A DNA stretch of 64,000 nt, taken from Dictyostelium discoideum (taxonomy: Eukaryota). The notes beneath the pieces were generated by a model that did no database searches, had not been told where the DNA came from, and was given only the letters and a program-made list of their open reading frames with translations. The stretch spans positions 1,056,001-1,120,000 of the forward strand of contig CM000153.2 in the NCBI GenBank assembly GCA_000004695.1, read 5' to 3'. Shown one piece after another: positions 11,057-54,788 of the stretch (position 1 is its first letter; each line of letters begins with the position of its first letter). A program made the translations under genes and the position numbers.

Positions 11057-11096
<40 letters not shown>

Positions 11097-11238: not shown

Positions 11239-11323
<85 letters not shown>

Positions 11324-11607: not shown

Positions 11608-11638
<31 letters not shown>

Positions 11639-14600: not shown

Positions 14601-16160
14601 ACACCAAAACCAACAAGTAGAACAAGATCAATGGTAGCTCAAGAACAAGAACAAGAACAAGGAAAAGGAAAGGAAAAAGAACAAGAAAAAGAAAAAGAAC
14701 AAGGAAAAGGAAAAGGAAAGGAAAAGGAAAAAGAAAAAGAAAAAGAAAAAGAAAAAGAAAAAGAAAAAGAAAAAGAAAAGGAAAAAGAAAAGGAAAAAGA
14801 AAAGGAAAAAGAAAAGGAAAAAGAAAAGGAAAATGAAGAACAAGTAATACCAAAGAAACGAAGAGGTTGTCCATCACAACCTGCACCTCGAACAAGACAA
14901 TCAGATTCAAAATTGGCTTCAATCGAACCAACAGAAGATCAACGACTCTCAAAAACACCTCCAACCTCAAAAGCCACATCATCAAAAACTACTCAACCTA
15001 TAACACCAAAAACTCCACAACCTACAACACCAAAAACTCCACAACCTGCAACACCAAAAACTCCACAACCTCCAAGAACTACACCAACATCGTCTTCAAA
15101 AACTCCTAATATTACCTCTCCAATGTCAGCATCTAAAATAATTACAAGATCTTCCACACCATCAAAAACTACCCTCCAAAAAAAAGAAATCCCACCACAA
15201 AAGAAAATTACTGCAAAACAAACTCCTCAAAGAATAATCAAACCAACTCTAAAATCTCAACAAGTAATACCAGCAACAACCTCAACAATATCAAGAACAA
15301 GAAGAAATTTACAAAAACAACTTGAAGAAACATTGGAGAATGACCAAGATCAAAAGGAATTGGTTGAGGAAAATGAAAATGAAAATGAAAATGAAAATGA
15401 AAATGAAAATGAAAATGAAAATGAAAATGAAAATGAAAATGAAAATGAAAATGAAAATGAAGAGGAAGAGATTGAAGAACAGGAAATGAAACAAAAAGAG
15501 GAGAAAGAAGAAGAGGAAGAAGATGATGAAGGAGAAGAACAAAAAGGAATTATTCAAAAAGGTGATGAAATAGATACAGATGTTGAAGATTATGGAGTAA
15601 AGAGAAAAAAGAAATCATTATCACCATTGAAACTAACCATTCCAAATACAAATCAGCTAATGTTATTGGATACAATGAATACCCAGACTGAAAAAAAAAG
15701 TAGAAGTAAATCTATCCTCGATCAAACTACTAAAGATCTTTTCGTTGTTCCTCAAATCATTAAAAGGGTTGCAATTATGTCACAACTCAAGCATATACCT
15801 TTAGAAATAAATTTCTCAAAAGAAATCACTGATGATCTTAGAGAATTACTCTCAATAACTCAAGAAATTCAGTCGATTGAAAAAGGTGGTTTCCTTTCTC
15901 ATGCCAATAGAGCCGTCTCTAGCAAAGAAGGTTTAAAATTCATTGAACATATTGATCTACGTATTTTCAGAGGTACCTATGATCATGACAAAAAATTATT
16001 TTGGTACCATCTTGAAAAAATCGCTCAACGTATCCCCCCTCAATTTTCAAAATCAAAAAAACTAACATTGGAAAAAATTTCTGAACTAAAAGAAAAATAT
16101 GAACAAAACCATCCAGAAATTCTTGATGAAGAAAATAATGAAGAAGAAAACGATGAATAA
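10871..16160 (+). CDS. BRPF/JADE-like chromatin reader: Enhancer-of-polycomb N-terminal-like region, PHD-Zn knuckle-PHD (PZP) and bromodomain; exons approx 10871-12253, 12345-12672, 12774-12994, 13062-16160
   Basis: EPC-N-like segment: EEILNKPVFKEIEESPMAPYNKPSGYIIYQEKSSEMLHDEVEYDMDSEDEKWLEEFN. PHD1: CGVCFDGTSDDTNQIVYCDGCDIAVHQDCYGILLIPEGHWFCQKCE. Zn knuckle: CVLCFKKNGSFKQTIDGEWVHLVCA. PHD2 in exon 3: KCIICKKIGGACIQCRERHCSVAFHPYCIKMN...IIFCKKH. Bromodomain: NDYYFLRMVLKSLESIEQLRPFYVPVLEEEAPSYFLIIKQPMSFQQIKQSLNTYAYENTDDFWKDITLIYTNAQLFNCSKTSVYKAS. Introns are GTATGT...TTATGTAG, GTAAGT...AAAAAG and GTAAGT...TTTTAG. There are long acidic/Ser tracts plus coding (EK)n and (NE)n repeats. Confidence 0.75.
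14640..14830 (+). repeat. Coding hexanucleotide repeat (GAAAAA/GGAAAA)n giving (EK)n/(GK)n in the BRPF-like gene; a second (GAAAAT)n giving (NE)n at about 15369-15470
   Basis: Direct read. It creates spurious antisense ORFs 14587-14985(-) and 15309-15557(-). Confidence 0.9.
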
Positions 16161-18073: not shown

Positions 18074-20134
<2,061 letters not shown>

Positions 20135-23547: not shown

Positions 23548-23960
23548 GATGGTTTTTGAAAATGGGTAAGATTTTTAATTAAAAAAAAAAAAAAAGTGTA
23601 AAAAAAAAAAAAAAATATATTAATATTTAAATAATAATTTCTAGAAATTCAGGTAATGTTAAAAAGACAATCACCTCACCAAATAAATCAATAAATGGCC
23701 AAAATCATTTTAATAAAGTGATTAAATCAACAACATCACCAATTAAAAGTACAATACCAACATTATCAAAAACTCAATCATCAACTTATTTCAAAGATTT
23801 AGATTCATTAAATAAAAAGAATGAAAATTCCTCATCCTCTGAAGTTAAATCATTGGCATCATTTTATGAAAAATTAGCAAATAGTTCAAAACCAAGTACA
23901 CCATCCATCAAAAAGAAATCACCAATTAAATTATCATCATCATCACAAAAATCAACAACA

Positions 23961-23994
<34 letters not shown>

Positions 23995-25769
23995 GTCAAC
24001 CAATTTCAACAGCTAAAAGATTATCAATTCAAAAACAACAACAAAAAAAAGATCAAGAAGAAAAAGAATTCCAAAAGAGACAACAAGAAAAAGAAAAAGA
24101 AAAAGAAGAAAAGGAAAAAGAAATTTTAAAACAAAAGGAGGAATTATTATCATCATTATCATCACCAAAAATAAATGGAACACCAATTAAATCATTACAA
24201 ACATCATTACCAAGAACACCAAATAAGGACTCACCATTAAAACTACAAGATCTTCATCAATCATCATCATCATCATCACCATCACCACTATTATATACAT
24301 CAACTGCAATTGCATCTCCAAAGAAATCTGCTACAACACCAACACCAACACCAACAACTCCAATGCAAGAATTGATGACATCAAAGCTTAGAGATACAAT
24401 TGATACTTATAGATCAAAGATTTCAGGATTAGAAGAGAAATTAGAATTATCAAACTTTGAAAATAATACATTGAAACAAGAGATTCAAGTCTTAAAAGGT
24501 AGATATGCTGTTGATACTTGTGCATTACTTGATATTATTAATGAACATGAAGTCACAATTGATTCTTTAAAAAAACAACTACAACAAAAAGAAACTGTTG
24601 TTCAACAAGAAGAACAAGATAGTATAATTCAAGAAAGGGATCCAATTGAGGAAACAGAAGATAGTGAAAAAGAACAATCAAAAAAATTAAATACTTCTTT
24701 TGAAAAACAAAAACAACAACAACAACAACAACAAAAACAACAACAACAATCATCAGATGATTCAAGTTCTGGAGAAGATGAAGAGGAGGATTCAGGTTCA
24801 GATTCATCAGAATATGATGAAGATGAAAAAATGATGTTAATTGAGAGATTGGAAGAAAAGGTACATGAACTTGAAAATGAAAAAGAAGATCTTCAACAAG
24901 AGATGTATGAATCTGAAGAATATTGTCAAAATTTACGTGAAAATAATAATCAAAAGTTAGAGACCATTGAAAAGTATAAATCAGAATTAAATGAATGCCA
25001 ATCATTGGTTTTATACTACAAGGAACAATTAACTCAAAAATCATTAGATTGTACAATCTATATGAATAAATTGACAGAAAAGAATGAAGAAATCCTTAAA
25101 CATAAGCAAAGAATTCAAAATTTCATTGATATGATGGAATTACAAAAACAATTAAATAATACTGCAAGTGTAATTTATTCAATGGATAATAATAATAATA
25201 ATAATAGTGGTAGTGGTAGTAATCCATCTTCACCATCATCATCATCATCTTTTAATATGTCACATTTTGCTCAACTTTCTCCATTAAGTAGATCAATGTC
25301 AGCAAATTCAAATGTAAATCAAACATTATCAACTACCTCATTATCATCTTCCACAACAACATCAGCATCAACATCAGCATCAACATCAGGAACATCTGCA
25401 ATAGTTGGAAAGAAACCAATACCACGTGGTTTATCAACAACACCAATTAAATCATTATCATCATCATCATTGTTATCATTGGCAGCAAATAATAATGCAA
25501 AGTCAAATGGTAACTCTGGTATTGTAACACCAAATAAATTATCATCATCAACAGTTGCTAAAAGACAATCATCTATTAATACACCAAATAATTCAAATGC
25601 CTTTAAATCACCAGCAATTAAAACACCAACATCAAGATTATCATCAAGACCTTCAAACACTGGTAACAATAATAATAATAGTTCAGTTTATCAAGTTCAA
25701 GCAGTTGGTAAATCTAAAACTCCAAGAAAAGTCATTCAATCACCAGCAACATTTAGTGATTACATTTAA
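23548..25769 (+). CDS. Ser/Thr-rich coiled-coil protein of unknown function; tiny first exon 23548-23564 (MVFEN-G) then 23645-25769
   Basis: An ATG in A-rich context is followed by a GTAAGA...TTTCTAG intron. The long open frame holds a coiled-coil region (LEEKLELSNFENNTLKQEIQVLKGRYAVDT...LKKQLQQKETVVQQEEQD...), an acidic stretch and a C-terminal Ser/Thr/Pro-rich region. No recognisable enzymatic domain. Confidence 0.5.
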
Positions 25770-27585: not shown

Positions 27586-28380
27586 ATGAATAATAAAGAA
27601 TTAAAAAATTTTAATAATGAAAATCAAAATATTTTTTGGAAAGTAATACATAATAAAGTTTTATTTAATTTAATATTTTATTTTATAGAAAATGATGAAA
27701 CAATAAATCAAAATCATTTATTTTATCAACATTTTATTACAAATAATCTTGATTATTCAGATTTAAGAATTAAATTTAAAAATTTAAAAAATTTAAATTG
27801 GTTTGTTGAAAAAAATGAATATTCATTATTATTAGATAAATTAAAACATAATCAATATATAAATGTAACAACAGAATCATTAAAATTATTCCTTTCAAAA
27901 TGTGAAGATATTAAAATCATTGATTTAGTTTATAAATATTTAAATGATAAAAATTTATTACCATTTCAAAATTTAGCAGAAGAATCAATTTTAAGTGGTA
28001 ATAAAATTTCATTTGAATATTTTTATAATTATAATGATAATAATAATAATAATAATGATAATAATAAATTTATATCAATAATAAATCCAACAACTATTTT
28101 ATATTTATATGAAATTTGTTCAGATATTGAAATTATTAAATGTTTAATTAATAATTTAAAAAAAAGAAATCAATTTAAATTAATTTATAATGATTTTGTA
28201 AGAAAGAAAGCAATCTCTTACTCTTATTTAAATAAAAATTTACAAAAGAATATCCTTTTTCAATTCATTTTATCAAATGAAGAATTTTATTTTATTCCAC
28301 CTCAATTAATTCAACCATCAAATATAATTCAATCAAATACACCAATTATTTTACCTTCAAATTTAACAATTCCTCAATTA

Positions 28381-28413
<33 letters not shown>

Positions 28414-31242
28414 ATTAATAAAATTCCATTTGTTTATTATAAAGATTGTAATTATGAAACGAGAAAAAAGATATTACAATTAAATTTAGTTGAAAAAAAA
28501 GTAATTTATAATAGTTCAAAATTTGAAATTAAATTAAATGGTAAAAATCAAGATGAAGAAATTGATGAATTAAAAACAAGTATTCATGAATTTTTTCAAA
28601 TATTTGGTAAAAAGTATTTTCAAACACCAATTCATATATTAAAAAGAATTGAATTGATTGAATGTAATTATGATGGTGTTGGTGGTAGTGATGGTGATGG
28701 TGGTGGTGATGGTGGTTCTATTTCAAAATCTAATCAAATTAAAGAATTGATGGAAATTTTATTAATTGAATGTCAATTTGATTTTAATTTATTTAAAATT
28801 TATTATCAAAGATTTAATGATACAAAAGTATTAGATAAAACAGATTCAATAACTAATAATAAATTTTTATTATACTTATTTCAAACAATGGATTGTAATG
28901 GATTATTATATTTTACAAACAATCATATATCTGTAACATTAAATGAAAGGAATTCATATATAGCATCATCTAATAGTATTACAAGTGGTGGTGATGGTAA
29001 TAATTTAATAATTAAAATATTTAATCAAAATTATCCAATTTTTCAAATTAAATTATTAGAATCATTATTAGAAACTAGTGATGGTAGATATAGAATTATT
29101 GAATTTATTAAATTTTGTAATAATCAAGATTTAATTAAAATTGAGATATGGGATACATTAATTAGATATTTATTATATTCGAATAAATGTGATTGTAAAT
29201 TTTTAGATAAAATTATTTCAATCGATGGTTTCAATAAGAAATTAGTATTATTAAAATTAAAAAAACTGTCAAATCAAATTAGACCATTTGAAAAATATAA
29301 ATGGTATATTGAATCTGTTAAACAATTTATTAAACCACTTGAATATTTTGAATATAACAGTTTTTGGGAACGTAATGAAATTGAATCGATTGAACATGTT
29401 GATTACATTTTTGAAAATAAATTATCATCATTTTATACACAACAAGTTTTAAATGAAACAAATAATAAATTAATTGAAATTAATTTTAAAATCTTGGATA
29501 TCAATACTGCAAATCATTTTCATAATAAATTTCCATTCATATCAAAAGAACAAATTTATACAGATTGTTACATTAATGCATTAATTAATTGCACTGATTT
29601 AAAAACAATAGATTTAATAAATAATTTACAAGTTAATATAAAGTCAATACAATCAAAATTAAATTTTAATTCAAAATTAGAAGACTCAATTCAATTATTA
29701 ATATATTTATGTAATTATTGCAATAATTCATTATCATGGCAACCTGATTTCTTTTTTAATTTCTTTTATTCATTATTAAATTTTATTTTTAAAAATGATA
29801 ATTCAAATCACATCACTCAAGAATTATTAAAAGAAGTTTCATTTAATAATTTTTATTTTGAAAATTATAATTGTGAAATGATTTTATTATTATCAACATT
29901 TATTTTAGAATTAAATTTACAACAAGTTAAATTTTTAATATCAAGTTTTAATTTTAATTTTAATAATCAACAACAAATTCAGCCAATTAATATTTTTAAA
30001 ATATTTCCAAATCAACAACAACAACAACAAGATCATCACCATACTAATGATTTTAAATGTATTGTTGAAATGATGAATTACCTTTTAGATAATGTGGTAC
30101 CACCATCATCATCATCATCATCATTTTCACAAATAATATTATTTGATGAAATTTTTAATCATTTATTTAAAAGATTATTAATATCAAGTGATATTTCATT
30201 TAATGAAATTTTAACAATAAAATCATTTTTAATTTCAAATGGTATAAATTTAATTGATGATACACCATTTCATTTATTTAATTACCTTTTAATTAAATCA
30301 CCTTATTTTTTAAAATATATTTTAAAATCTCATCCAGAGGGTATAGAACTAGGTGAACATATATCAATTCAAAAAATAATGACATCAGAATTATTTAAAC
30401 CAGTTAATAATGATAATAATGTAGAAAATCAATCATTTATTTTTAATTCAAAGTTTTTTACACTCGATTCAATTATAAAAAGTAGTTTTAATCAATTATT
30501 TCAATTATTATCTTCACTATACTATTCAAATTGGTTAAGTAGAGGTTTAGATAGAAATAATTTCGATTTTAAATTTATATTATCGATTGGTAAATTTGAT
30601 TTAATGTCTGAAATGTTATTAAAAAAACAGTTTAAACCATTTCCAATAATGATACCACAAATTTTAAAACTACAAGATATTAAATTAATTAAATTATATA
30701 TAACTAGTTTAATAGAATATTATCAAAATAATGATAATAATAATAACAATATACATGTATATAGATTACTTTTAGAAGCAATCAAAACATCAAATTTATC
30801 AATTACACAAATAATTTTAGAGAATTTTAATGAATTTAATTTGGATATTGAAACATTGGATAAAACAATTAAAGACACCATTAACCTTTTTGAAAAAACT
30901 GATTCTCAACTTATCACCTACATATTTAAACATCATTTACATCTATTTAAATTTAATAATAATAATGATAATAATAATAATACCTCATATAAAAAGATTT
31001 TTGAGCAATTTTTCATCAATGGTTCAATAGAAGTAACTCAACTATTTTTTGAAATGTTCCCTTCTCAATCATCCAAAGATTTAGAAATCACTAAAGATAT
31101 GATATCAATAGCCCTTAATCGTAAAAATATTAATATTATTAAATATTTTTATCAAAATGGTAAAATTTCAAAAATTCCACTTATCAATCATATTAAAGAA
31201 TCTTTAAAAAATGAATTGGATCTTATTGACTGGTTAGAATAA
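27586..31242 (+). CDS. Large (1218 aa) Asn/Ile/Lys/Phe-rich protein of unknown function, single exon
   Basis: A 3.66-kb uninterrupted ORF in roughly 80%-AT DNA cannot arise by chance, since TAA/TAG/TGA are frequent there. ATG sits in an A-rich context. No recognisable catalytic motif. A short GGSDGDGGGDGG tract and homopolymer Asn runs are present. Confidence 0.6.
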
Positions 31243-33061: not shown

Positions 33062-33599
33062 ATGGATAATAGTAGCGGAGGAACAAAATTAAATGAAGAT
33101 ATTGATATATTTTCAACATTTACATCTGCAGCAAATCATTTAGCATTATTATATAAACAATCAATTAATATAAAGAAACAATCCTATCTCAAAGGATATA
33201 ACGACTCTTTGGAAAATATATTAGATTTCATAAAAACAAATAATATAGATTCAATATCTTTACTCTTAAATTATATAAATAAAGAAAAAGAAAATTTAAA
33301 AGAGACAAACATTAGCGATCATAATAATAATAATAATAATAATTCATCAAATACTAAAAATACTAAAAATATCAATAACAACAATAACAACAACAATAGC
33401 GATAATAATAAAAATAATATTAACAATAGCGGAATAAATAAAATAGATAATAAATTAGAAAAAACAAAGATTTTATTAAAAAAAGATATAATTGTAAAAA
33501 ATCCATTTGAAAAACAAAATTTAAATATTCAACAAAATAGTGTAAACCCATTCACAACTTCTCTTCATCAAACTCAAAATAATAATAATAATAATGGCG

Positions 33600-33688
<89 letters not shown>

Positions 33689-33884
33689 GTACAACAACAA
33701 TTAATAAACAATAAAAAGAGATTATTACCCAAACTTTATTACCTTAATGGACAGAATCATAATAACATAAATGTATATAACACAATCAATAGCGCACAAC
33801 AACAAAATAATAATACTGTAAATGAAATAGTTTTTGAACAAAATGAACATCACCAAATGCAAGATCAACCCCTTGATCAGCATC

Positions 33885-33946
<62 letters not shown>

Positions 33947-34168
33947 CCGCAACAACAATTATTAAATCAACATATACAAGAACAAGAACATCATCAATCA
34001 CAAATTTATCATAGTTTTAATAGATTTAACCAAAATACAACAAATATATCATTTTCAAATATTATACCACAACCAGATCTTGGTCAAGATTTCATTGGGA
34101 ACAATCAATTGTTTAAAAAATATAAACAATCTTCGGCAATATCGGATCAATTTATGGATCCAAATTAA
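33062..34168 (+). CDS. Poly-Gln/Asn-rich hypothetical protein (368 aa), single exon
   Basis: ORF MDNSSGGTKLNEDIDIFSTFTSAANHLALLYKQSINIKKQSYLKGYNDSLENILDFIKTNN... has two long (CAA)n poly-Q tracts and a non-repetitive N-terminal ~80 aa. Confidence 0.5.
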
Positions 34169-36737: not shown

Positions 36738-38270
<1,533 letters not shown>

Positions 38271-38706: not shown

Positions 38707-39472
38707 ATGAAAATTATAAAGTATTTTTATACTTTCATACTCTATTTTTTATTTTTATTTAATTGTTTGGCGTTTGTTAAAAGTGGTGACCTGGAATGTA
38801 AAAATAATTTATTATTAAAATATCAAGTATTTGCAAATACTTTGTGCGATTCAGCAGAAGTTAATACCACAACAATCACTTTTCGTGCAACTTGTATAAA
38901 TAATATTCTTTACACTTTGTAAATATCAACTTGAAGTAATAATAATAATAAAAATAATAATAATTAATAACTAATTTTAAAAATTAATTTAAAATAGCCA
39001 TATTACTCCAACTGCTAGCGCACCAAATGTTACATTGACTTATGATGATTTGAATTGCTTCACAGATCTTTCTGATATGTAATTATTTAAAATATATAAT
39101 TAATTATTTTTTTTTTTAAAATAAAAAAAAAAAAAAAAAAAAACATGGATTTTAATAGTGTACAATAATTAAAAAAAAAAAAAAAAAAAAAAAAGGGTTT
39201 TCACAAATGTTAGATTCAATGGAAATGCATTTGGACAGGAGAATCAACAACAGGTAGCAAAAAGACTTTATTTTATTAATTGTACATTTGAGTCTGGTGA
39301 AATTGGTGATTCCCTTTCAAAAAACACAACTCTAGTTTGGATTGAATTTAATGAGAATTCAAATTTAAAAAATATTTATTTTTTAAATATTAAACATTTA
39401 GAAACATTGTAATTATAATTTAATATTATTTCCTATGGCCTATAAGTTTCAATTTTAACTAACTTTTTGGTG

Positions 39473-39512
<40 letters not shown>

Positions 39513-42500
39513 AATAAATAAACTTTAATAGTATACTAACTAGAATAGGCGATTTGGCTAAAATTCCATATATTGATAATAATCTTCAAAATCCTTCATA
39601 TCATTTTAAAGAAATGTTTGTATAAATTAATATTATTATTATTAAAATTTTCTTTCCAAATATTAATTTCAGTTTGGAAAAAAAAAAAAAAAGAATATTA
39701 GTTACAGAACAATTAATGTCATTTAATGGTTTAAATTGTTCAAGAATGACTATTACACTTATAAATGCAACAGAACAACATAGTGGATTAGATTTTTTAA
39801 ATACCATTAATAGTATTGATGAATTGAATTTAGATTTTGGTGATAATTTAATTGCCTTTCCAGGTATAATAGGTTCAAACAATAATAAATTAAAAACTCT
39901 TTCAATTTCAGGTAAATTTAAAAAACCATCAATTATAGGATTAACTATTCAAGAAGGCCTTCAAGAGTTTTCAATTAATGGTGGTGGTGAATTATTTAAT
40001 ATTAATGGTGCTTTACCATTCTTAACTATTCCATCTTCATTAAAGTTATTTTATATTGCTGATATTGGTTTAACCACTTTTCCAACCTTTCCACTTAATA
40101 TTGAAACAATGTAAATATATATATATATATATAGTTTAATTTTTTTTTAATTTTTTTTTTAAATACTAATTTTAAAATTTTTTTTTATTAATTTATTATT
40201 ACTATTATTATTATTAAAAAAAACTATTAGATTAATTTATAAAAATAATTTTGGAGGCATTTTACCAGATTTGTCAAGTTATAAAAAATTATCACATGTT
40301 TCTTTAGCAGAGTGTGGTTTCACTGGTACAATTCCAGAAAGTTATTGTATGTTTACTGGTACTTTAAATAATAATTCACTTACTGGTTTTTGGCCCCAAT
40401 GCAAAATATGTTATTTTGATAATTTTGAAGAAAGTTTTGATGGTAATCCATCACTAGAGAAAGGAAATTGTGGTATGTATTATAAATTAAAAATAAAAAA
40501 TAAAATATATATGATTTTATATTAATATTAATATTAAAAAATTTAGAACCAGGATCAATTGTTCCAAATTTAGAATATTATAATGTTTCAAATGAAATAA
40601 CATTATATGGAGAGAATTTAGGCATTTTCGGTCCAGGTAATATTTATAATATAGGATTTAAAGTAATAAATAGACAATCATTATTTAAAGCAATTTGGAA
40701 TGAAACAGCCAATGGTATAATTCCAAATATTATTGAACTTAATTTTGGTGGTACTAATTTTAAATTAGCAACTAAATCTTTAAAACCAATAGTTCAATCT
40801 ATTACAAAGCTTGGTTCTAATTATGCTTTTAAAGGTGAAAATTTCTCTTATAATAAAGAACATTTTGAAGTTAAAATTGGTGGTGTACCATGTGAAATTA
40901 ATTATATTGCTTTTGAAATTATTAAATGTAGTTTCAAAACATCAATATTACCAAATAATGGTATAGATATCAAATCAACAATTCAAAATTTTAATATAGA
41001 TCAAATAATTTCATTCACTGTAAATACAATTGATAATAAAACAACAGATATTTTAACATGTGCATCTGAATGTCTTAATGGTGGTTTTTGTAGTTCAACA
41101 AGTGGTAATTGTATTTGTGGTGAAATATATAAAGGATCTGATTGTGCTATTTTAAAGACATGCCAAAACAATTGTATAGATTCAAATCATGGATATTGTA
41201 ATTATACAAGTGAAAGTTGTGTTTGCGTTAATGGTTGGTCTGGTAATGATTGCTCAACTATGGTTTGTACTTCTGATTGTAGTGAACCTTTAGGTAATGG
41301 AAAATGTGATACAACCACTGGAATTTGTAAATGTTCTCAACAATATACCAGTGATGATTGTAGTTTACCAAATCAATATATTTCATCAGTATCATCAGTA
41401 CCAACAAGCGGTGGTGTTGTAAATATCTGGGGTTGGTTTGGTACAATACATTCAGGATTATCAATTATGATTGATCAACAAGTTTGTCAACATGATGTTA
41501 ATTCAATTACTAGTAGTTTTATAAATTGTACAGTTGGTGCTGGTAGTGGTACACAATCAATTACTCTCACTCAAAATGGTATTACATATACTGGTAATAA
41601 TATGTTCCATTATACTGAATTAACATATAGTTGTCCAAAAGATTGTTCAAATAATGGTAAATGTAATACAAATACAGGTCAATGTAAATGTAATAGTGGA
41701 TGGGGTGGTTATGATTGTAATTCAAAAAAAACAACTCAACCATCAACATCATCATCATCATCAACAACAACTACAGCATCCTCTTCAACAACTGGTTCTA
41801 CTGAGACACCAACACCAACTTCAACACCAGTAGTTGAAATTCCAAAATCAAATACTACAATCAATGAAGATTTAGGTTCAGCAGTTATCAATAATCAACA
41901 GACAACATATGAAATTTCAATTTTATCATTAATTGAAACTGATTTTTCAAATAATATTGTAAATACATTTAATTTATCAAAGAAATGGACAGCTTCAGTA
42001 AGCACAGATAATATCTATAAATTTACTCAAACAATTCAAGAATCATGTAATATCACATACACTATTGAAGAGATTAAAACAGAAAGAGATTATCAATGGG
42101 CAGGTTTAGATTTAACATTGGATAAAGATTCAATCAAAATTTCAGTCTCAATTAAAAATTACACTTTTAATAGTGTTTTAAATAATCTTCAATTAAGATT
42201 TGAATCATTAGTAGGTGATAATAATAAAAATACTCAAGATAATAATGAATGTAATAATAAAGATACTCAAGTTGATACAAGTGAAATCGATAAAAATCAA
42301 TTATTAAATTATGTAACAATATCAAGAAATCAAAAAGTTTTATATGGTCGTTTCATTAATAGAGTTATTAGTGATTCAAGACAAACTTTTATAACAACCT
42401 CTGTAATTCCAAATAATAATAATAATAAACAATCAGTGATCATTGGATTAAATCTTCCACATTGCACGCATGAATGTTTAATTGATCCTGATTTCTCTGT

Positions 42501-42702
42501 TTTGGTTTCACCATCATATCAAGAATGTTCTAGTGATTTAAATAATGGTCGTGCCAGTTGGGTATTACCTGTTGCTATCGTTGTACCTTGTGTTGCTGTT
42601 GCTGCCATTATTATTATTAGTGCGGTATTGTATAAAAAGAATCGTTTATCTTTTTTGATTGTCAAAAATAAGTTAAATAATATAAAACTTTCCAAAAAAT
42701 AA
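38707..42702 (+). CDS. Paralog A of a tandem family of type I membrane glycoproteins (signal peptide, LRR-like segments, IPT/TIG domains, four tenascin-type EGF modules, Ser/Thr stalk, TM helix, short cytoplasmic tail); 7 exons approx 38707-38918, 38998-39078, 39196-39408, 39532-39615, 39673-40110, 40231-40472, 40547-42702
   Basis: Signal peptide MKIIKYFYTFILYFLFLFNCLAFVKS. LRR-like exons such as ...LNIETM / ...LSHVSLAECGFTGTIPESYC...NSLTGFWPQCKICYF match the plant-LRR-like LxxNxLxGxIP pattern. The 2.16-kb last exon holds IPT-like KGENFSYNKEHFEVKIGGVPCEINYIAFEIIKC. EGF modules are CASECLNGGFCSSTSGNCICGEIYKGSDC, CQNNCIDSNHGYCNYTSESCVCVNGWSGNDCS, CTSDCSEPLGNGKCDTTTGICKCSQQYTSDDCS, CPKDCSNNGKCNTNTGQCKCNSGWGGYDCN. 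Then a Ser/Thr stalk and TM helix WVLPVAIVVPCVAVAAIIIISAVLY plus tail KKNRLSFLIVKNKLNNIKLSKK. Phase-consistent GT...AG introns were derived by eye. Confidence 0.7.
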
Positions 42703-43058
42703 AAAAAGTAAAATTGTGAATAGAAAAAAAAAAAAAATTAAAAAAAAATTAAAAATAAAAATAAAGAAAAAAAATAGAAAAAAAGAAAATTTAATTTAAT
42801 TTAAATTAATAAACATATCCGAATACCATTTGTAACACTCACATTTGATTGTGTTGATCAAAAAAAAAAATTTTTAATCAAACCTTGAATTGTGAAAGGT
42901 CAGAAAATCTTAAATTACTTGAAATTGAGAAAATAAAAAAAAAGGTTGGATATCCTAAATGAGAGTCCAAGGTGGTTAAAAAAAAAAAAAAAATAAAAAA
43001 TAAAAATTAAAAATTTTCAAAAGAAATCGTGGTCACAAATAACAATCAAAAAAATAAA

Positions 43059-46000
43059 ATGAAATCAAATTTTTTATTTAATTTCTTTTTACTATTATTT
43101 TTTATTAATATCCTAAAATTTGGTATTGTAAAATCAAGTAATTTGATATGTTTAAATAGTATTTCAACAAAATTGGCAGGAAGCACAATTTCAGATTATT
43201 GCACTAATGAATTAACAGTAAATTTATATTCATTTTCATATAGCACAGTATGTAATGGAACAACTCTAACTCAACTGTATGTAGAGTTCATTCTTTTTTT
43301 TTTAATTTTCTAAAAAAATTAATACTAATTATTTTTAACTTCTTTTTTATAGAACTCTTAGTACCATTTTATACAATAATAAAAGTTTGTCATATACTGA
43401 ATTAAATTGTTTTGAAACAACATTAGAATCACTGTAAAATACCAAAATTATATTATATTATTACAATTTTTTTTATTTTTTTTATTATTATTATTATTTT
43501 TTATATTAATATGATGATGATTTTTTTTTTTTTTTTTTTAATTTTTAGAATTTTAAATAGTATTTTAATACATGAAGATTCCTTTGGAGTTGAAAACCAA
43601 CCAGCAATTGCTGATACAATTACTTTAAGTAATGTTACATTCATAGGTAATTAATTTATAATAATAATTTTTTAATTTTTTTAATATTTCTCGAAAATAA
43701 TATTAATTCATAATTAAATAGATGGAAGATTTACATCTCTTGGAAATTCTTTACCATTTAATACAAGCACTTTAAACATTTTTAATCTTGGAACATCAAA
43801 TTTACTCTTTATTGATTTTTTAGCTATTAAAAACCTAAAAACATAGTTTGTATAATTAGTGATATTAAAATTAAATATTATTTTTTTTTTTTATTAATTT
43901 TTTTTTTTTTTTTTTTTAAAAATTTGAAAAAAGCTATACAATTAATTTTAATTCTTTAGAACCTTATCCAACATATACCAATAGTTTAACTAGCCCAGAC
44001 TTTAAAATGGAAAAAATGTAGGTACTTTTATTATAAATTAAAAAAAAAAAAAAAAATTCTAATATTATATATAAACAGAACAATGGCTTTATCAAACATT
44101 CCTTCTTTTTTAAATGTTGTAGTTGACTATCTAGAATTGCTATTAGTTGGAACATCATTTTCTTCATCACAATTATCAAATTTAGGAACAATGACTCATG
44201 TTTCAGCTTTGGCTTTTAAATCGAATTCTGCTATTGAATATCCAACAGAGTTAGGTTCAGCAAATAACAGCATTACTACTTTAACGTTGACAACACCACT
44301 TCTTGCATATGCTAATTATGCTCTCCCTCCAAACCTTGCCCTGCTTTATGTTAGTGCAGGTTCAAATTTCAATTTTAACAAAAGGCTCCCATTCAGTGTA
44401 TTCCCGTCTTCTTTAAAATCTATATTTATTGGAGCTATTGGTATTGATTCTTTTAGTCAGGTCCTTCCTCAAACAATTGAAGCTATGTAAGTATTATTTT
44501 TATATATATTATTATTTTTACCATTATTAGAATAAAAAATATTAATTGTAGAAAATTTCAATCAATTCAAATAGAACAATTTCAAATAATCCTATGGGAC
44601 CAAGAAATTTACCAAGTTTTGAGCATTACACAAACTAACTCAACTTACCCTAACAGGATGTGGATTTACTGGAACAATTCCAGAATCATATTGTTTATTT
44701 GATTGTGTGTTAAGTTCAAATAATTTAAATGGTACATTACCTCAATGTAAGATTTGTCATGCTGAAGAAAATTATGGTAAATTTGAAAGTAATCCAAATT
44801 TAACTCAAGGAATATGTTGTAAGTATAGTAATTTAAAAATTAAAAACTAAATGGTAATTCTAATTATAAACTTTATTAGATCCAGGATCAATCGTTCCAA
44901 ATTTAGATTATAATAATATTACCAAGAGTTTAGAATTATATGGAACCAATTTAGGTTTACATGGTCCATTAATAAAAGAAACAAATCAAACATTTGCAGT
45001 TAATCTTCCACAATCTTCATTCAAATTAAATTGGAATGAAGTTGTTTATGGTACAATTCCTAATACAATTGATATAAAAATTTCAACAAAATACTATACA
45101 TTGGCAACTAAATATTTAAAACCAACAATTTTTGAAATTACAAGGTCTGGTAATACCTTTACATTCAAAGGAAAAAACTTTTCTTACAATATCAGTGTTA
45201 TTGAAATTAAAATTTTAGATATTGAATGTCCAATAAGTTATAGTGAATTTACTATTATTAATTGTAAATCTAATAAAACTCAATTGGGTAATTCAATCCA
45301 AGGAACAATTCAAAATAAAATGTCTACTGAAATTATTCCATTTTATCTAAATACAAATGATAATTCAACATCAATACAATGTAGTACTGATTGTAATGAA
45401 CCTTTAGGTAATGGAAAATGTAACATCGCAAATGGAATTTGTAAATGTATCAATGAATTTATTGGTAATGATTGCTCTATACCAAATCAATACATTTCAT
45501 CAGTATCATCAGTATCAACAAGTGGTGGTGTTGTAAATATCTGGGGTTGGTTTGGTACATTACATTCAGGATTATCAATTATGATTGGTCAACAAGTTTG
45601 TCAACATGATATTAATTCAATTACTAGTAGTTTTATAAATTGTACAGTTGGTGCTGGTAGTGGTACACAATCAATTACTCTCACTCAAAATGGTATTACA
45701 TATACTGGTATTAATATGTTCCATTATACTGAATTAACATATAGATGTCCAAAAGATTGTTCAAATAATGGTAAATGTAATACAAATACAGGTCAATGTA
45801 AATGTAATAGTGGATGGGGTGGTTATGATTGTAATTCAAAATCATCAACTGATGGTGGAACTACAACAACAATATCATCATCATCATCAACCACAGGTAC
45901 AACTCAAACACCAACACCAACAAAGGAAATTCCAAAATCAAATACAACCATTAATGGAACTGATGGTTTAACTGTTTTGAATAATCAACAAACAACATAT

Positions 46001-46810
46001 GAAATTTCAATTGTATCATTAATTGAAACTGATTTTTCAAATAATATTGTGAATACATATAACTTATCAAAGAAATGGACACCTGTAAACCATACCAATA
46101 TAAATATCTATAAATTTACTCAAACAATTCAAGAATCATGTATTATCACATACACTATTGAAGAAGTTAAAACAGCAAGAGAATATCGATGGGCAGGTTT
46201 AGATTTAACATTGGATAAAGATTCAATCAAAATTTCAGTCTCAATTAAAAATTACACTTTTAATAGTGTTTTAAATAATCTTCAATTAAGATTTGAATCA
46301 TTAGTAGGTGATAATAATAGAAATACTCAAGATAATAATGAATGTAATAATAGAGATACTCAAGTTGATACAAGTGAAATCGATAAGAATCAATTACTAA
46401 ACTATTTAACAATATCAAGAAATCAAAAAGTTTTATATGGTCGTTTCATTAATAGAGTTATTAGTGATTCAAGACAAACTTTTATAACAACCTCTGTAAT
46501 TCCAAATAATAATAATAATAATAAACAATCAGTGATCATTGGATTAAACCTCCCACATTGTAAAAATGAATGTTTAATTGATCCTGATTTCTCTGTTTTG
46601 GTTTCATCATCTTATCAAGAATGTTCAAGTGATTTAAATAATGGTGGTCGTGCCAGTTGGGTATTACCTGTTGCTATCGTTGTACCTTGTGTTGCTGTAG
46701 TTTTAATAGCAATTATTGTTGCAATTTTATACAGAAAGAATCGTTTGGCATTTTTAATTGCAAAAAGTAAAATTAATGATATTAGATTATCAAAGAAAGA
46801 ATTAAAATAA
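43059..46810 (+). pseudogene. Paralog B of the same family; 3' terminal exon (about 44881-46810) intact and nearly identical to paralog C, but 5' exons carry an in-frame TAG, a splice-phase inconsistency and a 1-nt frameshift. Likely pseudogene, or sequencing errors
   Basis: Exons approx 43059-43276 (MKSNFLFNFFLLLFFINILKFGIVKS...), 43353-43433, 43549-43646, 43721-43848, 43960-44017, ~44077-44487, ~44555-44828, 44881-46810. Exon 4 reads ...FIDFLAIKNLKT-TAG (TAG at about 43843-45) where paralog C has ...FVDFYSIKYLTYL. Exons 4 and 5 cannot be joined in frame. In exon 7 the homologous frame runs NLPSFEHYTN-TAA, then resumes in another frame as KLTQLTLTGCGFTGTIPESYC; one A is missing from an A-run near 44630. 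The terminal exon encodes IPT, two EGF modules, stalk, TM (WVLPVAIVVPCVAVVLIAIIVAILY) and tail RKNRLAFLIAKSKINDIRLSKKELK. Confidence 0.45.
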
Positions 46811-46968
46811 TTAAATGTGACATATACGCTTTTTGAGTGCCATTCGAATAAAAAAATAAATTCGAATAAAAAAATAAATTTGAAAAAAAAAAAATCATTT
46901 TCTAAAAACACTTCGCTAAAAATAAAAAACATGCGGTTTTTCTTGAAATATAAATATCTAGGTAAACA

Positions 46969-47004
<36 letters not shown>

Positions 47005-47071
47005 TTTTTTTTTTTTTTTATCACTGCAAAGAAAAATAAAAATAAAAAAATATTAAGATAATTAAAATAAA

Positions 47072-48871
47072 ATGAAATCAATTTTTTATTATTTTTATTT
47101 ATTGATTTTTATTGTCTCACTCAAGTTAACCATTGTTAAGTCAACAGATGAAATATGCTTAAATAATTTATTAATTAGTTTCTTTGGAGAAAAAACTAAT
47201 CAGTATTGCACAGGTGGCGATATAATAAATTCTACTGGGAATTTATCTTCTATAAGTGTTGTTTGTAATGCACAATATAATATTGTGGAATTGTAGGTTA
47301 ATTATAATATTAAAAAAAAAAAAAAAAAATAATAATAATAACGATTAAAATAATTTAGAAAACTTTTTAATAATATTTATTTTTGTATAGATATATTGAA
47401 AATAATGGTGTACTTGTTACAAAAAGTTTAAATTACAATGATTTTAATTGTTTTTCAGGTTCTCTTAATACTTTGTAAGAAAATGAATTAAATATATTTA
47501 TTTTTTATTATTATAAAATGATTTAATGATTAACCTTTTATTATTATCATTTAATTTAGAAAAATCAATGGTTTACCTATATCAGCTGATGCATTTGGAA
47601 CTGATATGCAAACAAAGGTTGCACAACGTATAGAATTAACCGATTGCACATTCCCAGGTTGGTATTTATAATTAGTATTATTAATTCAAATCACCCACAA
47701 AATTATTAATTAATATTTAAATTTTAAAACTAGATGGTAGATTTTCCTCAGTTGGAAATGCTTTAGCAAATACTACTAAATATATTTCAATTAAAATCAA
47801 TGATAATTCCAATTTAAATTTTGTAGATTTCTATTCAATCAAATACCTTACTTATTTGTATGTTTTGATATTATTATAATACTTTTATTATTTTATAATG
47901 ATGCTAACTCTAATTAAAAAAAAAAACAAAAAAATAGTCATGTAACTCTTAATAATTCAAATGTTGAGCCTCCAACCTTTTCTAATACTCTTCAAACTAG
48001 TGATAAGCCTTCTCTTTCAGAAGTGTATGTTTTTTTTAAAAAAAAAAGAAAAAAAAAAAAAACTATAAATAATAATAAAATACTAATATTAAATTTAATA
48101 GGAATTTACCTTTAAAAAATATTCCATCATTTACGTATCTTTTGATAAACTCACTCTCAATAAGTTTGGTTGGAAATTCATTCACTGAAGCCGAATTATT
48201 AAATTTAGGTACATTAAATGTTACTTATTTAGCATTAAAAAAAGAAAACCTTGCAATGGATTATCCAAATTCAATTTCAAGTATTACCAAAGTTATTGGT
48301 CTAACTGTATATGGTTCTTTTACAGCAAGAGCCAGTGGTTATTCTCTCCCACCTAATTTAAATAATCTAGTACTTGCACCAGATGTAAGTTTCAATTTTA
48401 ATGGTAAATTTCCATTCCTTGGTACATTACCACTCAAATTGACCTCTATTTCTATTGGTTCAATAGGTCTTACAACATTTCCTGATAATTTTCCTCCAAA
48501 TATTGAAAAACTGTAATTATTATTATTATTATTTTTATTATTATTTAATATTATTATTTATTTATTTTTACTATTTTGAATAATTTGATTTTTAATACTT
48601 TAAAATAGATCTTTAAATTATAACAAAATGGATCCACAAACAAATTTACCAGATCTTTCATCTTTTTCTAAATTAAAAGAAGTTTTATTAATATCAAATC
48701 AATTCACAGGTCCAATACCCAATTCTTATTGTTTATTCAAGGTCTCATTAAATTCAAATAATTTAACTGGTGATTGGCCTCAATGTTTAATTTGTTTCCC
48801 ATATTATAATGTAAATAATTTGAACGGCAATCCATTTTTAAATAGGGGAACTTGCAGTATGTTTTATTATT

Positions 48872-48936
<65 letters not shown>

Positions 48937-50881
48937 CTAATTACTTTTCAAACTTTTAGATCCAGGATCAGGGGTTCCAAATTTAGAATATGAAAGTAGT
49001 TCAAAATATTTTGAACTTTATGGAGAAAACCTTGGTTTGGCTCCCCCAACCATTGAAAATCAAGCATTTAAAGATATAATCATACCAAATTCAAGATTTG
49101 GATATAGTTGGAATGAAGGGCTATTAGGACCAGTTCCAGATATAGTAAAAGTAAATATCTCTTCAAAAATCTATTTGATGGCTACCAAATATTTAACACC
49201 TCAAATAAGTACCATTACAAAAGCTGGTAATGATTTCACTTTTAGAGGTATTAATTTTTCTTATAACAAAAACCAATTTACTATAAAAATTGCTGGTGTT
49301 GATTGTGTAATAAGTTATATTGAATATGGTATTATAAATTGTAGTAATATCGATTCCGTTCCGTTAGGTCATTATGTTCCAGGTACATTGGAAAGTCAAA
49401 AATCAACAGAAATCATTACATTCTACATTAATACAATTGATAATAAAACATCTGACATTATTAAATGTAATTCTGATTGTAATGAACCTTTAGGTAATGG
49501 AAAATGTAATACTACCAATGGAATTTGTGAATGCACTCAACAATATACCAGTGATGATTGTAGTTTACCAAATCAATTCATTACATCAGTATCATCAGTA
49601 CCAACAAACGGTGGTGTTGTTGATATCTGGGGTTGGTTTGGTACAATACATTCAGGTTTATCAATTATGATTGGTCAACAAGTTTGTCAACATGATGTTA
49701 ATTCAATTACTAGTAGTTTTATAAATTGTACAGTTGGTGCTGGTAGTGGTACACAATCAATTACTCTCACTCAAAATGGTATTACATATACTGGTAATAA
49801 TATGTTCCATTATACTGAATTAACATATAGTTGTCCAAAAGATTGTTCAAATAATGGTAAATGTAATACAAATACAGGTCAATGTAAATGTAATAGTGGA
49901 TGGGGTGGTTATGATTGTAATTCAAAATCATCAACTGGTGGCGAAACTACATCAACATCATCAACCACAGGTACAACTACACCAACCTCATCACCAGTAA
50001 TTGAAATTCCAAAAACAAATACAACCATTAATGGAACTGATGGTTCAACTGTTTTGAATAATCAACAAACAACATATGAAATTTCAATTTTATCATTAAT
50101 TGAAACTGATTTTTCAAATAATATTGTGAATACATATAACTTGTCAAAGAAATGGGATCCTGTAAATATTACATCAAATAATATCTATAAATTTACCCAA
50201 ACAATTCAAGAATCATGTATTATCACATACACTATTGAAGAAGTTAAAACAGCAAGAGAATATCGATGGGCAGGTTTAGATTTAACATTGGATAAAGATT
50301 CAATCAAAATTTCAGTCTCAATTAAAAATTACACTTTTAATAGTGTTTTAAATAATCTTCAATTAAGATTTGAATCATTAGTAGGTGATAATAATAGAAA
50401 TACTCAAGATAATAATGAATGTAATAATAGAGATACTCAAGTTGATACAAGTGAAATCGATAAAAATCAATTATTAAATTATGTAACAATATCAAGAAAT
50501 CAAAAAGTTTTATATGGTCGTTTCATTAATAGAGTTATTAGTGACTCAAGACAAACTTTTATAACAACCTCTGTAATTCCAAATAATAATAATAATAATA
50601 AACAATCAGTGGTCATTGGATTAAATCTTCCACATTGTACACATGAATGTTTAATTGATCCTGATTTCTCTGTTTTGGTTTCATCATCTTATCAAGAATG
50701 TTCAAGTGATTTAAATAATGGTGGTCGTGCCAGTTGGGTATTACCTGTTGCTATCGTTGTACCTTGTGTTGCTGTTGTTTTAATCATTATCATTGGTTTT
50801 ATTTTATTTAAAAAGAATCGTTTGGCATTTTTAGTCGCCAAAAATAAGATGAAAGGTCTCAAATTAAAAGGATTATCATAA
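47072..50881 (+). CDS. Paralog C of the same family, apparently intact (about 1064 aa); 8 exons approx 47072-47292, 47391-47474, 47560-47657, 47724-47847, 47938-48024, 48102-48512, 48609-48856, 48960-50881
   Basis: All junctions are phase-consistent: MKSIFYYFYLLIFIVSLKLTIVKS...NIVEL / YIENNGVLVTKSLNYNDFNCFSGSLNTL / KINGLPISADAFGTDMQTKVAQRIELTDCTFPG / DGRFSSVGNALANTTKYISIKINDNSNLNFVDFYSIKYLTYL / FHVTLNNSNVEPPTFSNTLQTSDKPSLSEV / VNLPLKNIPSFTYLLINSLSISLVGNSFTEAELLNLG...NIEKL / SLNYNKMDPQTNLPDLSSFSKLKEVLLISNQFTGPIPNSYC...NRGTC / NPGSGVPNLEYESS... Then IPT (ATKYLTPQISTITKAGNDFTFRGINFSYNKNQFTIKIAGVDCVISYIEYGIINC), EGF (CNSDCNEPLGNGKCNTTNGICECTQQYTSDDCS), second IPT, EGF (CPKDCSNNGKCNTNTGQCKCNSGWGGYDCN), stalk, TM WVLPVAIVVPCVAVVLIIIIGFILF, tail KKNRLAFLVAKNKMKGLKLKGLS. 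Confidence 0.75.
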
Positions 50882-53468: not shown

Positions 53469-54788
53469 TTAAGCAAAGAATAATTTTTGATTATTATTAC
53501 AATTATTTTTTGGGGTTTGAGCTGGAATTGGTGAGTTTGATCTTGAAACATCAGTTGATTGTGATGGTGAAGATGGAATTTGTTGAGATGGTGAAGATGG
53601 TTCGCTATAATTATTTATATTAAATGATAATTTATTTGAAACTGGAAATGGTGAAAATGGAAGAGTGATTCTAAAAGATTCTTTTTCTTTCTCTAAAATA
53701 TTTAATCTATTTTCATATTGAGATAATTTCAATTGAATTGAAACTAAAATTTCTTTTGTTAAACTTTGATCATTTTTCAATGATGGTAATAATTTAAATA
53801 ATTTTTTAGTTTCATTTCTAATTGATTGAATTTCTTTTCCAAAAATATTATCAATTGATTCTAATTCTGGTGTAGATTGATCATTTGTTGTTGTTGTTGT
53901 TGATGATGAAGATGATAATGATGGTGATGAAATTGGTGTAAATAATGGTGTTTTTAATTTTTTATTATTATTATTATCGCTAAAATTATTATTATTATTA
54001 TTATTATTATTATTTGATTCATCTTCAAATGATCTTTTCTTTTTCCATTGATTACTATTAATTATTGGTGATGATTCAGCTGAGGAAGATGAAATTTTAT
54101 TTTCATTTATAACCCATGGATCAACTATATTTCTTAATTTCCAAAAACCATTTTGTTTTAATTTTTCTAAACCGCTTTCAAAAACATTCTTGCTATGACT
54201 TAACATATCTTGAATTTGTTTTCTCCAATTATCTGTTCTTTTTCTATTTATACATAATCTTTCCCAATGAGAAGTCATAAATTCATATACTTCTGTCTTT
54301 AATGAAAAATATTGTTTTTCTGGATATTCATTATGGAGTGTAAAAAATACAACTCTCATAATTGAACTCCATGTTGGGGTTTTTAATAAAAGTGCTGGTT
54401 GACCACGTTCACATAATTCACATTTTTTCAATGAACAATATTGTGGAAATTGTGGTACTGATGATGATTCAACGCTAGATGATGATGGTGATGATACTAT
54501 TTGTTTTTGTGGTAATGATAATAATTCAACGCTTGCGATTTGTGGTGACAATGTTGGAACGTCATATTCAACATTATTTATAATATTATTATTATTATTA
54601 TTATTTATATTATTATTAATTAAAATTTCATCTTTTTTATTTTGATTATTATTAAAAAATTTATTTGTATATGGCAATCTGTTTGTAAGTGGGATTGGAA
54701 TATTTGCGTTATTATTAAAAAATATAAAATTATTATTATTTATTAAAAAATCTGGGGTTGCGTTATTATTAAAAGTTGATGAAATCAT
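53469..54788 (-). CDS. Asn/Ser-rich hypothetical protein (439 aa) with one conserved-looking globular region
   Basis: Single ORF MISSTFNNNATPDFLINNNN... Its non-repetitive core is ...CSLKKCELCERGQPALLLKTPTWSSIMRVVFFTLHNEYPEKQYFSLKTEVYEFMTSHWERLCINRKRTDNWRKQIQDMLSHSKNVFESGLEKLKQNGFWKLRNIVDPWVI... It is flanked by poly-N, poly-S and a C-terminal coiled-coil-like stretch (SIRNETKKLFKLLPSLKNDQSLTKEILVSIQLKLSQYENRLNILEKEKE). I do not recognise the domain. Confidence 0.5.
   Translation of the reverse strand: MISSTFNNNATPDFLINNNNFIFFNNNANIPIPLTNRLPYTNKFFNNNQNKKDEILINNNINNNNNNNIINNVEYDVPTLSPQIASVELLSLPQKQIVSSPSSSSVESSSVPQFPQYCSLKKCELCERGQPALLLKTPTWSSIMRVVFFTLHNEYPEKQYFSLKTEVYEFMTSHWERLCINRKRTDNWRKQIQDMLSHSKNVFESGLEKLKQNGFWKLRNIVDPWVINENKISSSSAESSPIINSNQWKKKRSFEDESNNNNNNNNNNFSDNNNNKKLKTPLFTPISSPSLSSSSSTTTTTNDQSTPELESIDNIFGKEIQSIRNETKKLFKLLPSLKNDQSLTKEILVSIQLKLSQYENRLNILEKEKESFRITLPFSPFPVSNKLSFNINNYSEPSSPSQQIPSSPSQSTDVSRSNSPIPAQTPKNNCNNNQKLFFA

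Follow-up and report, generated by a model that had tools for sequence, protein, structure and literature searches.

A tandem trio of ComC-family genes in Dictyostelium discoideum with ancient leucine-rich repeat heads and a homogenized 3′ module

Introduction

Do three adjacent genes for predicted surface glycoproteins in Dictyostelium discoideum AX4 form a recognition system of a new kind, or do they belong to a family that is already known? The genes, which we call g1, g2 and g3, occupy positions 38,707 to 50,881 of a 64,000-nucleotide stretch of contig CM000153.2 (positions 1,056,001 to 1,120,000 of the forward strand; G+C ~20%), referred to here as the window. They comprise g1 at 38707–42702 (7 exons, product of 1134 residues), g2 at 43059–46810 (DDB_G0283853; 8 exons, with the frame broken in exon 7 and a product of 1062 residues once one base is restored), and g3 at 47072–50881 (DDB_G0283787 by 100% protein identity; 8 exons, intact, 1064 residues). 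A preliminary description of this DNA had proposed three head-to-tail paralogs that might serve self/non-self recognition. The three paralogs were confirmed at 38.7–50.9 kb, all on the forward strand, and their proposed function is weighed below against the domain content, evolutionary history and integrity of each gene.

Results

Judged by their predicted domains, the three genes are uncharacterized additions to a known family, that of ComC. The ComC supersandwich domain (ComC_SSD, PF22933; hereafter SSD) was matched over its full profile in g1, in g2 with its missing base restored (“repaired g2”), and in g3 at 204.8–212.1 bits (cut-off 24), with E-values between 1e-60 and 1e-63 across the trio (1.8e-60 for g1 and 1.2e-61 for repaired g2). 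The domain LRR_ComC (PF24141) was matched by the g1 exon at 39674–40111 (35.5 bits, cut-off 27) and by the g3 ortholog of D. dimigraforme (P0006; 39.5 bits, profile positions 2–288), and two relatives from D. purpureum, P0020 and P0024, are listed with PF24143, a ComC beta-sandwich. The gene comC itself is DDB_G0271692 and encodes 1501 residues, with a 1513-residue ortholog in D. purpureum, according to the supplement of PMC4931340. As a stand-in for ComC we used the D. purpureum protein P0091 (1513 residues), a probable ComC ortholog chosen by length and Pfam architecture, which carries LRR_ComC at 348 bits, both ComC beta-sandwiches, an EGF array, a TIG domain and the SSD. BLASTP aligned g3 with P0091 collinearly, at 36% identity over the last 470 residues (E 1e-81) and 25% from the leucine-rich repeats (LRRs) to the EGF modules (E 3e-18).

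Together, the SSD and LRR_ComC matches and the collinear alignment with P0091 show that the trio architecture, which had been presented as non-standard, is ordinary for a large, Pfam-defined dictyostelid family. A HMMER census of the SSD among 1.84 billion cluster representatives returned 655 at E ≤ 1e-3 and 297 at E ≤ 1e-10. All 20 of the representatives sampled for taxonomy were dictyostelid (Dictyostelium, Cavenderia, Heterostelium and Synstelium), and other SSD family members in AX4 include DDB_G0289863, DDB_G0286417 and DDB_G0281459.

Each gene of the trio encodes a type I membrane protein with many potential glycosylation sites and with its parts in the same order: a signal peptide, an irregular LRR solenoid, two beta-sandwiches, an EGF-TIG-EGF block, a mucin-like stalk rich in serine, threonine and proline, an SSD of ~220 residues, a transmembrane (TM) helix and a short basic tail. 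Much of this had been anticipated in the preliminary description. The motifs it quoted (GFTGTIPESYC, NQFTGPIPNSYC, WPQC(K/L)IC and EPLGNGKC) are present in the translations, and its type I topology agrees with hydropathy profiles, which give two hydrophobic segments per protein, one N-terminal and signal-like and one TM, followed by a basic tail of ~20 residues. The glycosylation stalk it had placed before the membrane is found as a Ser/Thr/Pro-rich segment in each protein, with 17–20 N-x-S/T sequons per protein, and the claimed lack of a kinase or other signaling domain holds, with no cytoplasmic domain beyond the short tail. Two of its segments needed redrawing: the further extracellular domain estimated at ~350 residues is the ~220-residue Pfam ComC_SSD, and the two IPT/TIG segments are three beta-sandwich units, a pair behind the LRR plus a TIG flanked by EGF modules.

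The individual domain assignments differ in strength. The modules described as tenascin-type EGF are EGF modules, matched by EGF_2 and EGF_Teneurin at or near the Pfam cut-offs, but not EGF_Tenascin, for which scores were 14.6–17.5 bits against a cut-off of 25. EGF_2 scored 25.5–39.5 bits in g1 and g2 (39.5 in g1) and 20.5–26.5 bits in g3, and EGF_TEN matches stayed under the Pfam cut-off. The IPT/TIG assignment is borderline in Pfam (20.9 bits in g1 and ~16 in g2 and g3; cut-off 20.9) and is positive at the level of fold, where an AlphaFold model of g3 searched with Foldseek matched plexin/MET IPT domains. The LRR assignment is borne out by AlphaFold predicted local distance difference test (pLDDT) values of 85–93 and by Foldseek matches to LRR proteins.

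The modules can be followed along g3, whose AlphaFold model has a mean pLDDT of 76.4 and values of 85–93 across residues 1–590. Exons 1–7 (47072–48856) encode the signal peptide (residues 1–24) and an irregular LRR solenoid of ~13 repeats with a cysteine-rich cap (residues ~60–425), for which Foldseek returned SHOC2, LRRC8A, LGR4/5 and ERL1; the final LRR repeats of the trio bear plant-like xLTGxIP motifs. Two beta-sandwiches follow (residues 425–590; 48960–49456), supported by AlphaFold strands, weak Pfam TIG matches and Foldseek matches to plexin/MET IPT, and placed where ComC has its first and second beta-sandwich. Beyond them are an EGF module, a TIG-like sandwich and another EGF module (residues 591–747; 49457–49927; Pfam EGF_2, EGF_Teneurin and EGF_TEN), and then the stalk (residues 748–776; 49928–50014), with a combined Ser, Thr and Pro fraction of 0.50 over residues 741–800 and pLDDT below 50 over residues 748–777. 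The SSD (residues 777–997; 50015–50677) was matched at E 1e-62 with full profile coverage, and its Foldseek matches were the luminal domain of GLMP and the periplasmic domain of YidC. The gene closes with the TM helix (from about residue 1014; Kyte–Doolittle peak 3.3, modeled helix 1029–1039), the basic tail KKNRLAFLVAKNKMKGLKLKGLS and the stop codon, all within 50726–50881.

Comparison of the three copies separates the N-terminal from the C-terminal half. Within AX4 the paralogs are 10–50% identical over the first 590 residues and 80–100% identical over residues 591–1000. Synonymous divergence (dS) between them is 0.84–1.13 in the N-terminal half, where it is saturated, 0.10–0.18 over residues 591–1000, and 0.3–0.7 in the TM helix and tail. 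The similar portion is a 3′ tract running from EGF-TIG-EGF through the stalk to the SSD, located at 41266–42672 in g1, 45380–46770 in g2 and 49459–50848 in g3. The g1 tract has 86–90% DNA identity to those of g2 and g3, and the g2 and g3 tracts are delimited by the same DNA identity, dS and C-terminal tree. A neighbor-joining tree of the N-terminal parts groups sequences by orthology: g1 falls beside genes from D. citrinum and D. purpureum, and separate clades of several species hold g2 and g3. The corresponding C-terminal tree groups sequences by species, an adjacent D. purpureum pair included. Grouping by species together with low paralog dS indicates that the 3′ 1.4 kb of each gene, from EGF to SSD, has been homogenized repeatedly among neighbors by gene conversion.

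Codon constraint was also considered as a cause of the low 3′ dS and was rejected, because between-species g3 orthologs have dS of 0.25–0.54 in the C-terminal segment, above that of the older paralogs within AX4. In D. purpureum, scaffold GL871177.1 (L008, 132–8311) holds an adjacent ComC-family pair whose N-terminal halves are distant and whose C-terminal halves are near-identical sisters. The 3′ module therefore evolves in concert outside D. discoideum as well.

The order Peptidase_C1, g1, g2, g3, RrnaAD is kept in seven assemblies (three labeled D. discoideum, one D. cf. discoideum, two D. citrinum and one D. firmibasis), and D. dimigraforme retains g2 and g3. On these comparisons the three LRR heads are ancient, distinct orthologous lineages that have stayed adjacent since before the divergence of D. 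discoideum, D. citrinum and D. firmibasis. The copies had been described as rapidly diverging; what we find instead are ancient N-terminal halves with 1:1 orthologs in conserved synteny and 3′ halves kept alike by conversion.

Evolution within the D. discoideum group was followed by comparing AX4 with two assemblies labeled D. discoideum (L001 and L002; GCA_054859355.1 and GCA_054859385.1). Both are unusually distant from AX4, with dS of 0.03–0.09 and nonsynonymous divergence (dN) of 0.002–0.027 in flanking genes. Typical genes in a natural D. discoideum population carry 0.1–0.7% single-nucleotide polymorphisms (SNPs) in Supplementary Data 1 of PMC5288501. Because flanking dS (window positions 33–61 kb) is about ten times these population SNP densities, L001 and L002 may represent a cryptic lineage, and divergence from them should be read accordingly.

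Against this background dS of 0.03–0.09, the N-terminus of g3 is 86% identical to the two divergent lineages. Residues 25–270 gave dN of 0.11–0.12, dS of 0.07–0.08 and a dN/dS ratio (omega) of 1.4–1.7, with intron divergence of 0.06–0.07; this omega is not significantly above 1, the bootstrap 95% intervals being 0.79–3.2 and 0.91–3.9. Over the remainder of g3 omega was 0.22–0.28 between the same lineages, and in every between-species pair it was 0.53–0.79 for residues 25–270 versus 0.2–0.4 at the C-terminus. Divergence had been predicted to concentrate in the N-terminal exons, and those of g3 do outpace the rest of the gene. The N-terminal omega was 0.21 in g2 and ~0.6 in g1. A narrower interval of g3, residues 61–270, gave an omega of 2.0 (P(omega ≤ 1) = 0.02 in one of two comparisons) and was set aside as chosen post hoc.

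When changes in g3 residues 25–270 were polarized with D. cf. discoideum as outgroup, the two lineages carried 21 and 19 nonsynonymous and 3 and 3 synonymous changes. Lineage-specific decay of g3 in AX4 was rejected on account of this symmetry. Nonsynonymous and synonymous changes stood at 40:6 in residues 25–270 and at 45:30 elsewhere in g3 (Fisher p = 0.002), and substitutions were ~2-fold enriched at LRR beta-strand positions predicted by AlphaFold (odds ratios 1.9–2.35, p = 0.03 to 2e-4). The strand face is the usual binding face of LRR proteins. These patterns are compatible with the g3 LRR being a fast-evolving binding head, under either mild diversifying selection or weak constraint.

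The middle gene had been taken as intact, and in this sequence its frame is disrupted. A 1-bp deletion in exon 7 of g2 (forward strand, 44629–44640, near 44635) reads ACAAA-CTAAC here versus ACAAACCTAAC in two other D. discoideum-labeled assemblies aligned with it, and with canonical splicing in the corrected model it leads to an in-frame TAA after 376 codons. The repaired translation is free of stops. The deposited AX4 protein for g2 (P0004, 628 residues) maps to 44927–46807 at 100% identity, and the frameshift accounts for this truncated annotation of DDB_G0283853. An independent chromosome-level assembly, with five mismatches in 23.8 kb relative to the window, has the same deletion, indicating that the lesion is real in this lineage. 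An error in the reference sequence was accordingly rejected as an explanation, though the independent assembly is of the same lineage. In the annotation of the near-identical assembly (P0181) the lesion is bypassed by an artificial intron. Every other assembly examined has intact reading frames and eight-exon structures. A GT…AG interval at 44456–44623 in g2 would remove the frameshifted stretch in frame with the loss of about one LRR, and was picked by our gene predictor.

Gene models were built with our own splice-aware predictor, which combines codon log-odds with GT–AG introns. Its output for g3 was identical to the deposited 1064-residue protein (P0001), and the g1 and g2 models were therefore trusted after a cross-check against orthologs. 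All exons lie on the forward strand. Those of g3 are 47072–47292, 47391–47474, 47560–47657, 47734–47857, 47938–48024, 48102–48512, 48609–48856 and 48960–50881. The exons of g2 are 43059–43276, 43353–43433, 43549–43646, 43722–43845, 43934–44017, 44079–44486, 44575–44818 and 44880–46810, a layout that agrees with the threaded orthologs. Exon junctions of g2 and g3 are homologous, and their orthologs in the other threaded assemblies have exons of the same lengths.

For g1 the model has exons at 38707–38918, 38998–39078, 39196–39408, 39532–39615, 39694–40110, 40231–40472 and 40547–42702. The counterparts of exons 3 and 4 of g2 and g3 are fused into one, and the product has three more EGF modules than those of g2 and g3; the near-identical assembly annotates a g1 product of the same length, 1134 residues. 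The small exon at 39532–39615 is conserved among strains, the length of its flanking poly-A tract varies, and D. citrinum has an 84-nucleotide exon at the equivalent place. This exon stays in frame only via an unusual GTTTGT donor. At the boundary of intron 4 and exon 5, the poly-A tract at 39673–39693 has ~15 A here and ~19 and 27 in two other assemblies.

Several deposited models of these genes in other assemblies appear to be wrong (L002 3825–9676, L007 890–9595, L003 5960–9679 and L009 5998–9749). The apparent errors are a fusion of the protease with g1 (1413 residues), a fusion of g1 with g2 (2258 residues), and g2 split into 173 residues plus 845 or 855 residues, the split being seen in two assemblies, one of which is D. 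cf. discoideum.

The remainder of the window was scanned for further copies of the trio genes and none was found. Upstream of the trio is a papain-family cysteine protease (I29 propeptide and Peptidase_C1; 36858–37451) and downstream an rRNA adenine dimethylase (~51.1–52.5 kb); these neighbors are unrelated to the trio. Long open reading frames (ORFs) at 7176–10349, 10871–12364 and 13665–16160 correspond to a BRCT-containing, ATP-dependent DNA ligase, an Enhancer-of-polycomb-like protein (EPL1) and a bromodomain protein, which are likewise unrelated to the trio. Five others (18782–20134 on the reverse strand; 23718–25769, 27586–31242 and 33062–34168 on the forward strand; 53469–54788 on the reverse strand) encode 368–1218 residues without a Pfam match at E ≤ 1e-4. 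Two of them, 33062–34168 and 53469–54788, are conserved in other strains (omega 0.03–0.3) and are therefore probably real genes.

Discussion

We hypothesize, with a probability of roughly 60%, that the trio is a conserved tandem array of ComC-family genes with a role in contact-dependent adhesion or signaling. The analogy is drawn from comC mutants, in which, according to the supplement of PMC4931340, aggregation is aberrant and spores are absent when the mutant develops alone but sporulation occurs in chimeras, a non-cell-autonomous defect. The gene comC has also been cited as important for intercellular communication (PMC8865844). Because loss of comC blocks aggregation and sporulation non-cell-autonomously, the likeliest role for the trio by analogy would be developmental communication or adhesion between cells in contact, with its products acting as ligand, adhesin or co-receptor and not as a kin-discrimination barcode. 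The proteins would sit in the plasma membrane, where a rigid beta-sandwich/EGF stack and the stalk may hold the LRR binding surface away from the cell. Three LRR heads could provide three binding specificities, that of g3 changing fastest and mainly at predicted beta-strand positions. Since the tail is without a signaling domain, the shared SSD/TM module might couple in cis to a common partner. ComC reportedly regulates the expression of lagC/tgrC1 and lagD.

Several observations weigh against this hypothesis. The analogy stands on 25–43% identity to ComC, with an EGF count of 14 in ComC and 2–5 in the trio, and in Pfam searches of the full-length AX4 g1–g3 proteins at E ≤ 0.1 there was no match to LRR_ComC or to Beta-sand_ComC (PF24142/PF24143). 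Hydropathy is the sole basis for the signal peptide and TM helix calls. The g2 gene is dispensable in the laboratory lineage, the g3 N-terminal omega near 1 fits weak constraint equally well, and literature searches by gene ID found no paper naming any of the three genes.

A surface protein of this design could also be a sensor or adhesin directed at something other than self, be it bacterial prey, a pathogen or the substratum, and work much like plant LRR receptor-like proteins. We consider this possible, if unlikely. An LRR-led ectodomain with plant-like xLTGxIP motifs in its last repeats, fast LRR change concentrated on the predicted strands, a tandem array with gene conversion and the lack of a cytoplasmic domain would all suit such a sensor, as would the loss of one copy without harm in an axenically propagated lineage. 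A Physarum gene labeled COMC is moreover reported to be amoeba-stage specific (PMC8865844). However, the sole characterized relative has a developmental phenotype and not a feeding or immune one, homology to plant receptor-like proteins is limited to the LRR fold, and the frameshift predates, or is independent of, anything tied to axenic culture. That frameshift could be read in another way, as a sign that the array is largely redundant or decaying, in which case its genes would be leftover duplicates from a big family of surface proteins and each would do little by itself in D. discoideum. The premature stop in g2 of the AX4 lineage, the near-neutral rate of the g3 N-terminus between D. discoideum lineages and the very large size of the family would all fit. 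Yet frames and eight-exon structures are intact in every other assembly examined, omega is 0.2–0.4 over most of each gene and 0.21 at the g2 N-terminus, the trio is syntenic in several species, and nonsynonymous changes are patterned by structure, which together make redundancy or decay improbable.

The preliminary description had leaned toward kin recognition of the tgrB1/tgrC1 type, in which polymorphic ectodomains match or mismatch and drive sorting. Over g3 residues 25–270 dN exceeds both dS and intron divergence, the changes are symmetric on the two lineages and enriched on predicted beta-strands, and ComC, the family prototype, works in cell–cell communication. Against this, the omega of g3 is not significantly above 1, the lineages used for it are unusually distant from one another, and a single residue separates the g3 protein of AX4 from that of the near-identical assembly. 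The low N-terminal omega of g2, its frameshift in the reference strain for normal kin recognition, and the clean 1:1 orthologs between species also argue against such a role, and the genes are tandem paralogs with an LRR/EGF/SSD architecture that is not Tgr-like. For known allorecognition genes, Gruenheit et al. (PMC5288501) give 13.45% SNPs for tgrC1 and 8.9% for tgrB1, with 18 alleles each and the leading correlation with segregation, and for comC the same source gives 0.31% SNPs, 3 alleles and r = -0.09 with segregation. DDB_G0283787 and DDB_G0283853 are not among the best ~2,000 of 6,532 genes (p ≤ 0.12) ranked by segregation correlation in Supplementary Data 1 of PMC5288501, where they may be non-significant or unscored; their absence from the best-ranked genes is evidence against a strong association with segregation and is no measure of diversity in g2 or g3. 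No segregation association is recorded there. The Tgr-type claim is unsupported, and we regard it as very unlikely. A broader conjecture is that the g3 head, perhaps with the whole trio, belongs to a second recognition system unrelated to Tgr. Diversifying selection would then act on the concave face of the LRR, a conserved and gene-converted stalk/SSD would couple interchangeable heads to one signaling partner, and the targets would be other Dictyostelium cells (in mating, species or kin recognition) or bacteria. This is speculative, and we would not expect it to hold.

On present evidence, the locus reveals no new kind of system and no new allorecognition locus. Few components of contact-dependent communication in Dictyostelium development have been defined genetically. 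ComC is among them, yet its large family is almost entirely unstudied. In the trio, three different heads occur naturally on stalk and membrane modules that are nearly the same, and the middle copy is naturally inactivated in a laboratory strain, which makes the locus a compact system for finding the targets of ComC-type LRR heads and for asking if the SSD/TM modules share a partner. It also clearly exemplifies concerted evolution confined to certain domains, here in an array of amoebozoan surface-protein genes. Gene conversion limited to those domains, the naturally inactivated g2 and the bias of LRR change toward strands are all useful as leads.

Comparison with known systems

TgrB1 and TgrC1, described as a ligand–receptor pair (PMC11088635), resemble the trio as single-pass surface glycoproteins with IPT/TIG folds, adjacent genes and N-terminal variability. 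The resemblance goes little further: Tgr proteins are without the LRR, EGF and SSD modules that dominate the trio ectodomain (no direct alignment with Tgr was made), and the Tgr genes are a linked pair of different genes, whereas the trio consists of three paralogs of one architecture. Tgr genes have ~9–13% SNP density and ~18 alleles in ~20 strains, whereas divergence in the trio is modest and one copy is broken in AX4. With teneurin and tenascin EGF modules and with plexin/MET IPT domains, the trio has single EGF and IPT folds in common, and the overall architectures are unrelated.

Plant LRR receptor-like proteins (the Cf-9/RLP group) combine an LRR ectodomain with one TM segment and a short kinase-less tail, and their genes form tandem arrays in which neighbors exchange sequence and strand-face positions change faster. 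The trio resembles them in ectodomain, TM segment, tail, array, exchange and strand-face change. This is functional analogy and not homology: the lineages are unrelated, and in the trio beta-sandwich, EGF and SSD modules follow the LRR.

The closest comparison is with ComC (Kibler et al. 2003, Dev Biol 264:506). The trio has the same domain order from signal peptide to short tail, its SSD matches at E 1e-60 or better, and within the sampling neither it nor ComC occurs outside the dictyostelids. The differences are of degree in the ectodomain and of arrangement in the genome. ComC has 14 EGF modules in 1501 residues and the trio proteins 2–5 in ~1060–1130; identity is 43% in the SSD but 25–36% elsewhere, the trio LRR being strongly diverged; and the trio, unlike ComC, forms a tandem array whose 3′ halves evolve in concert.

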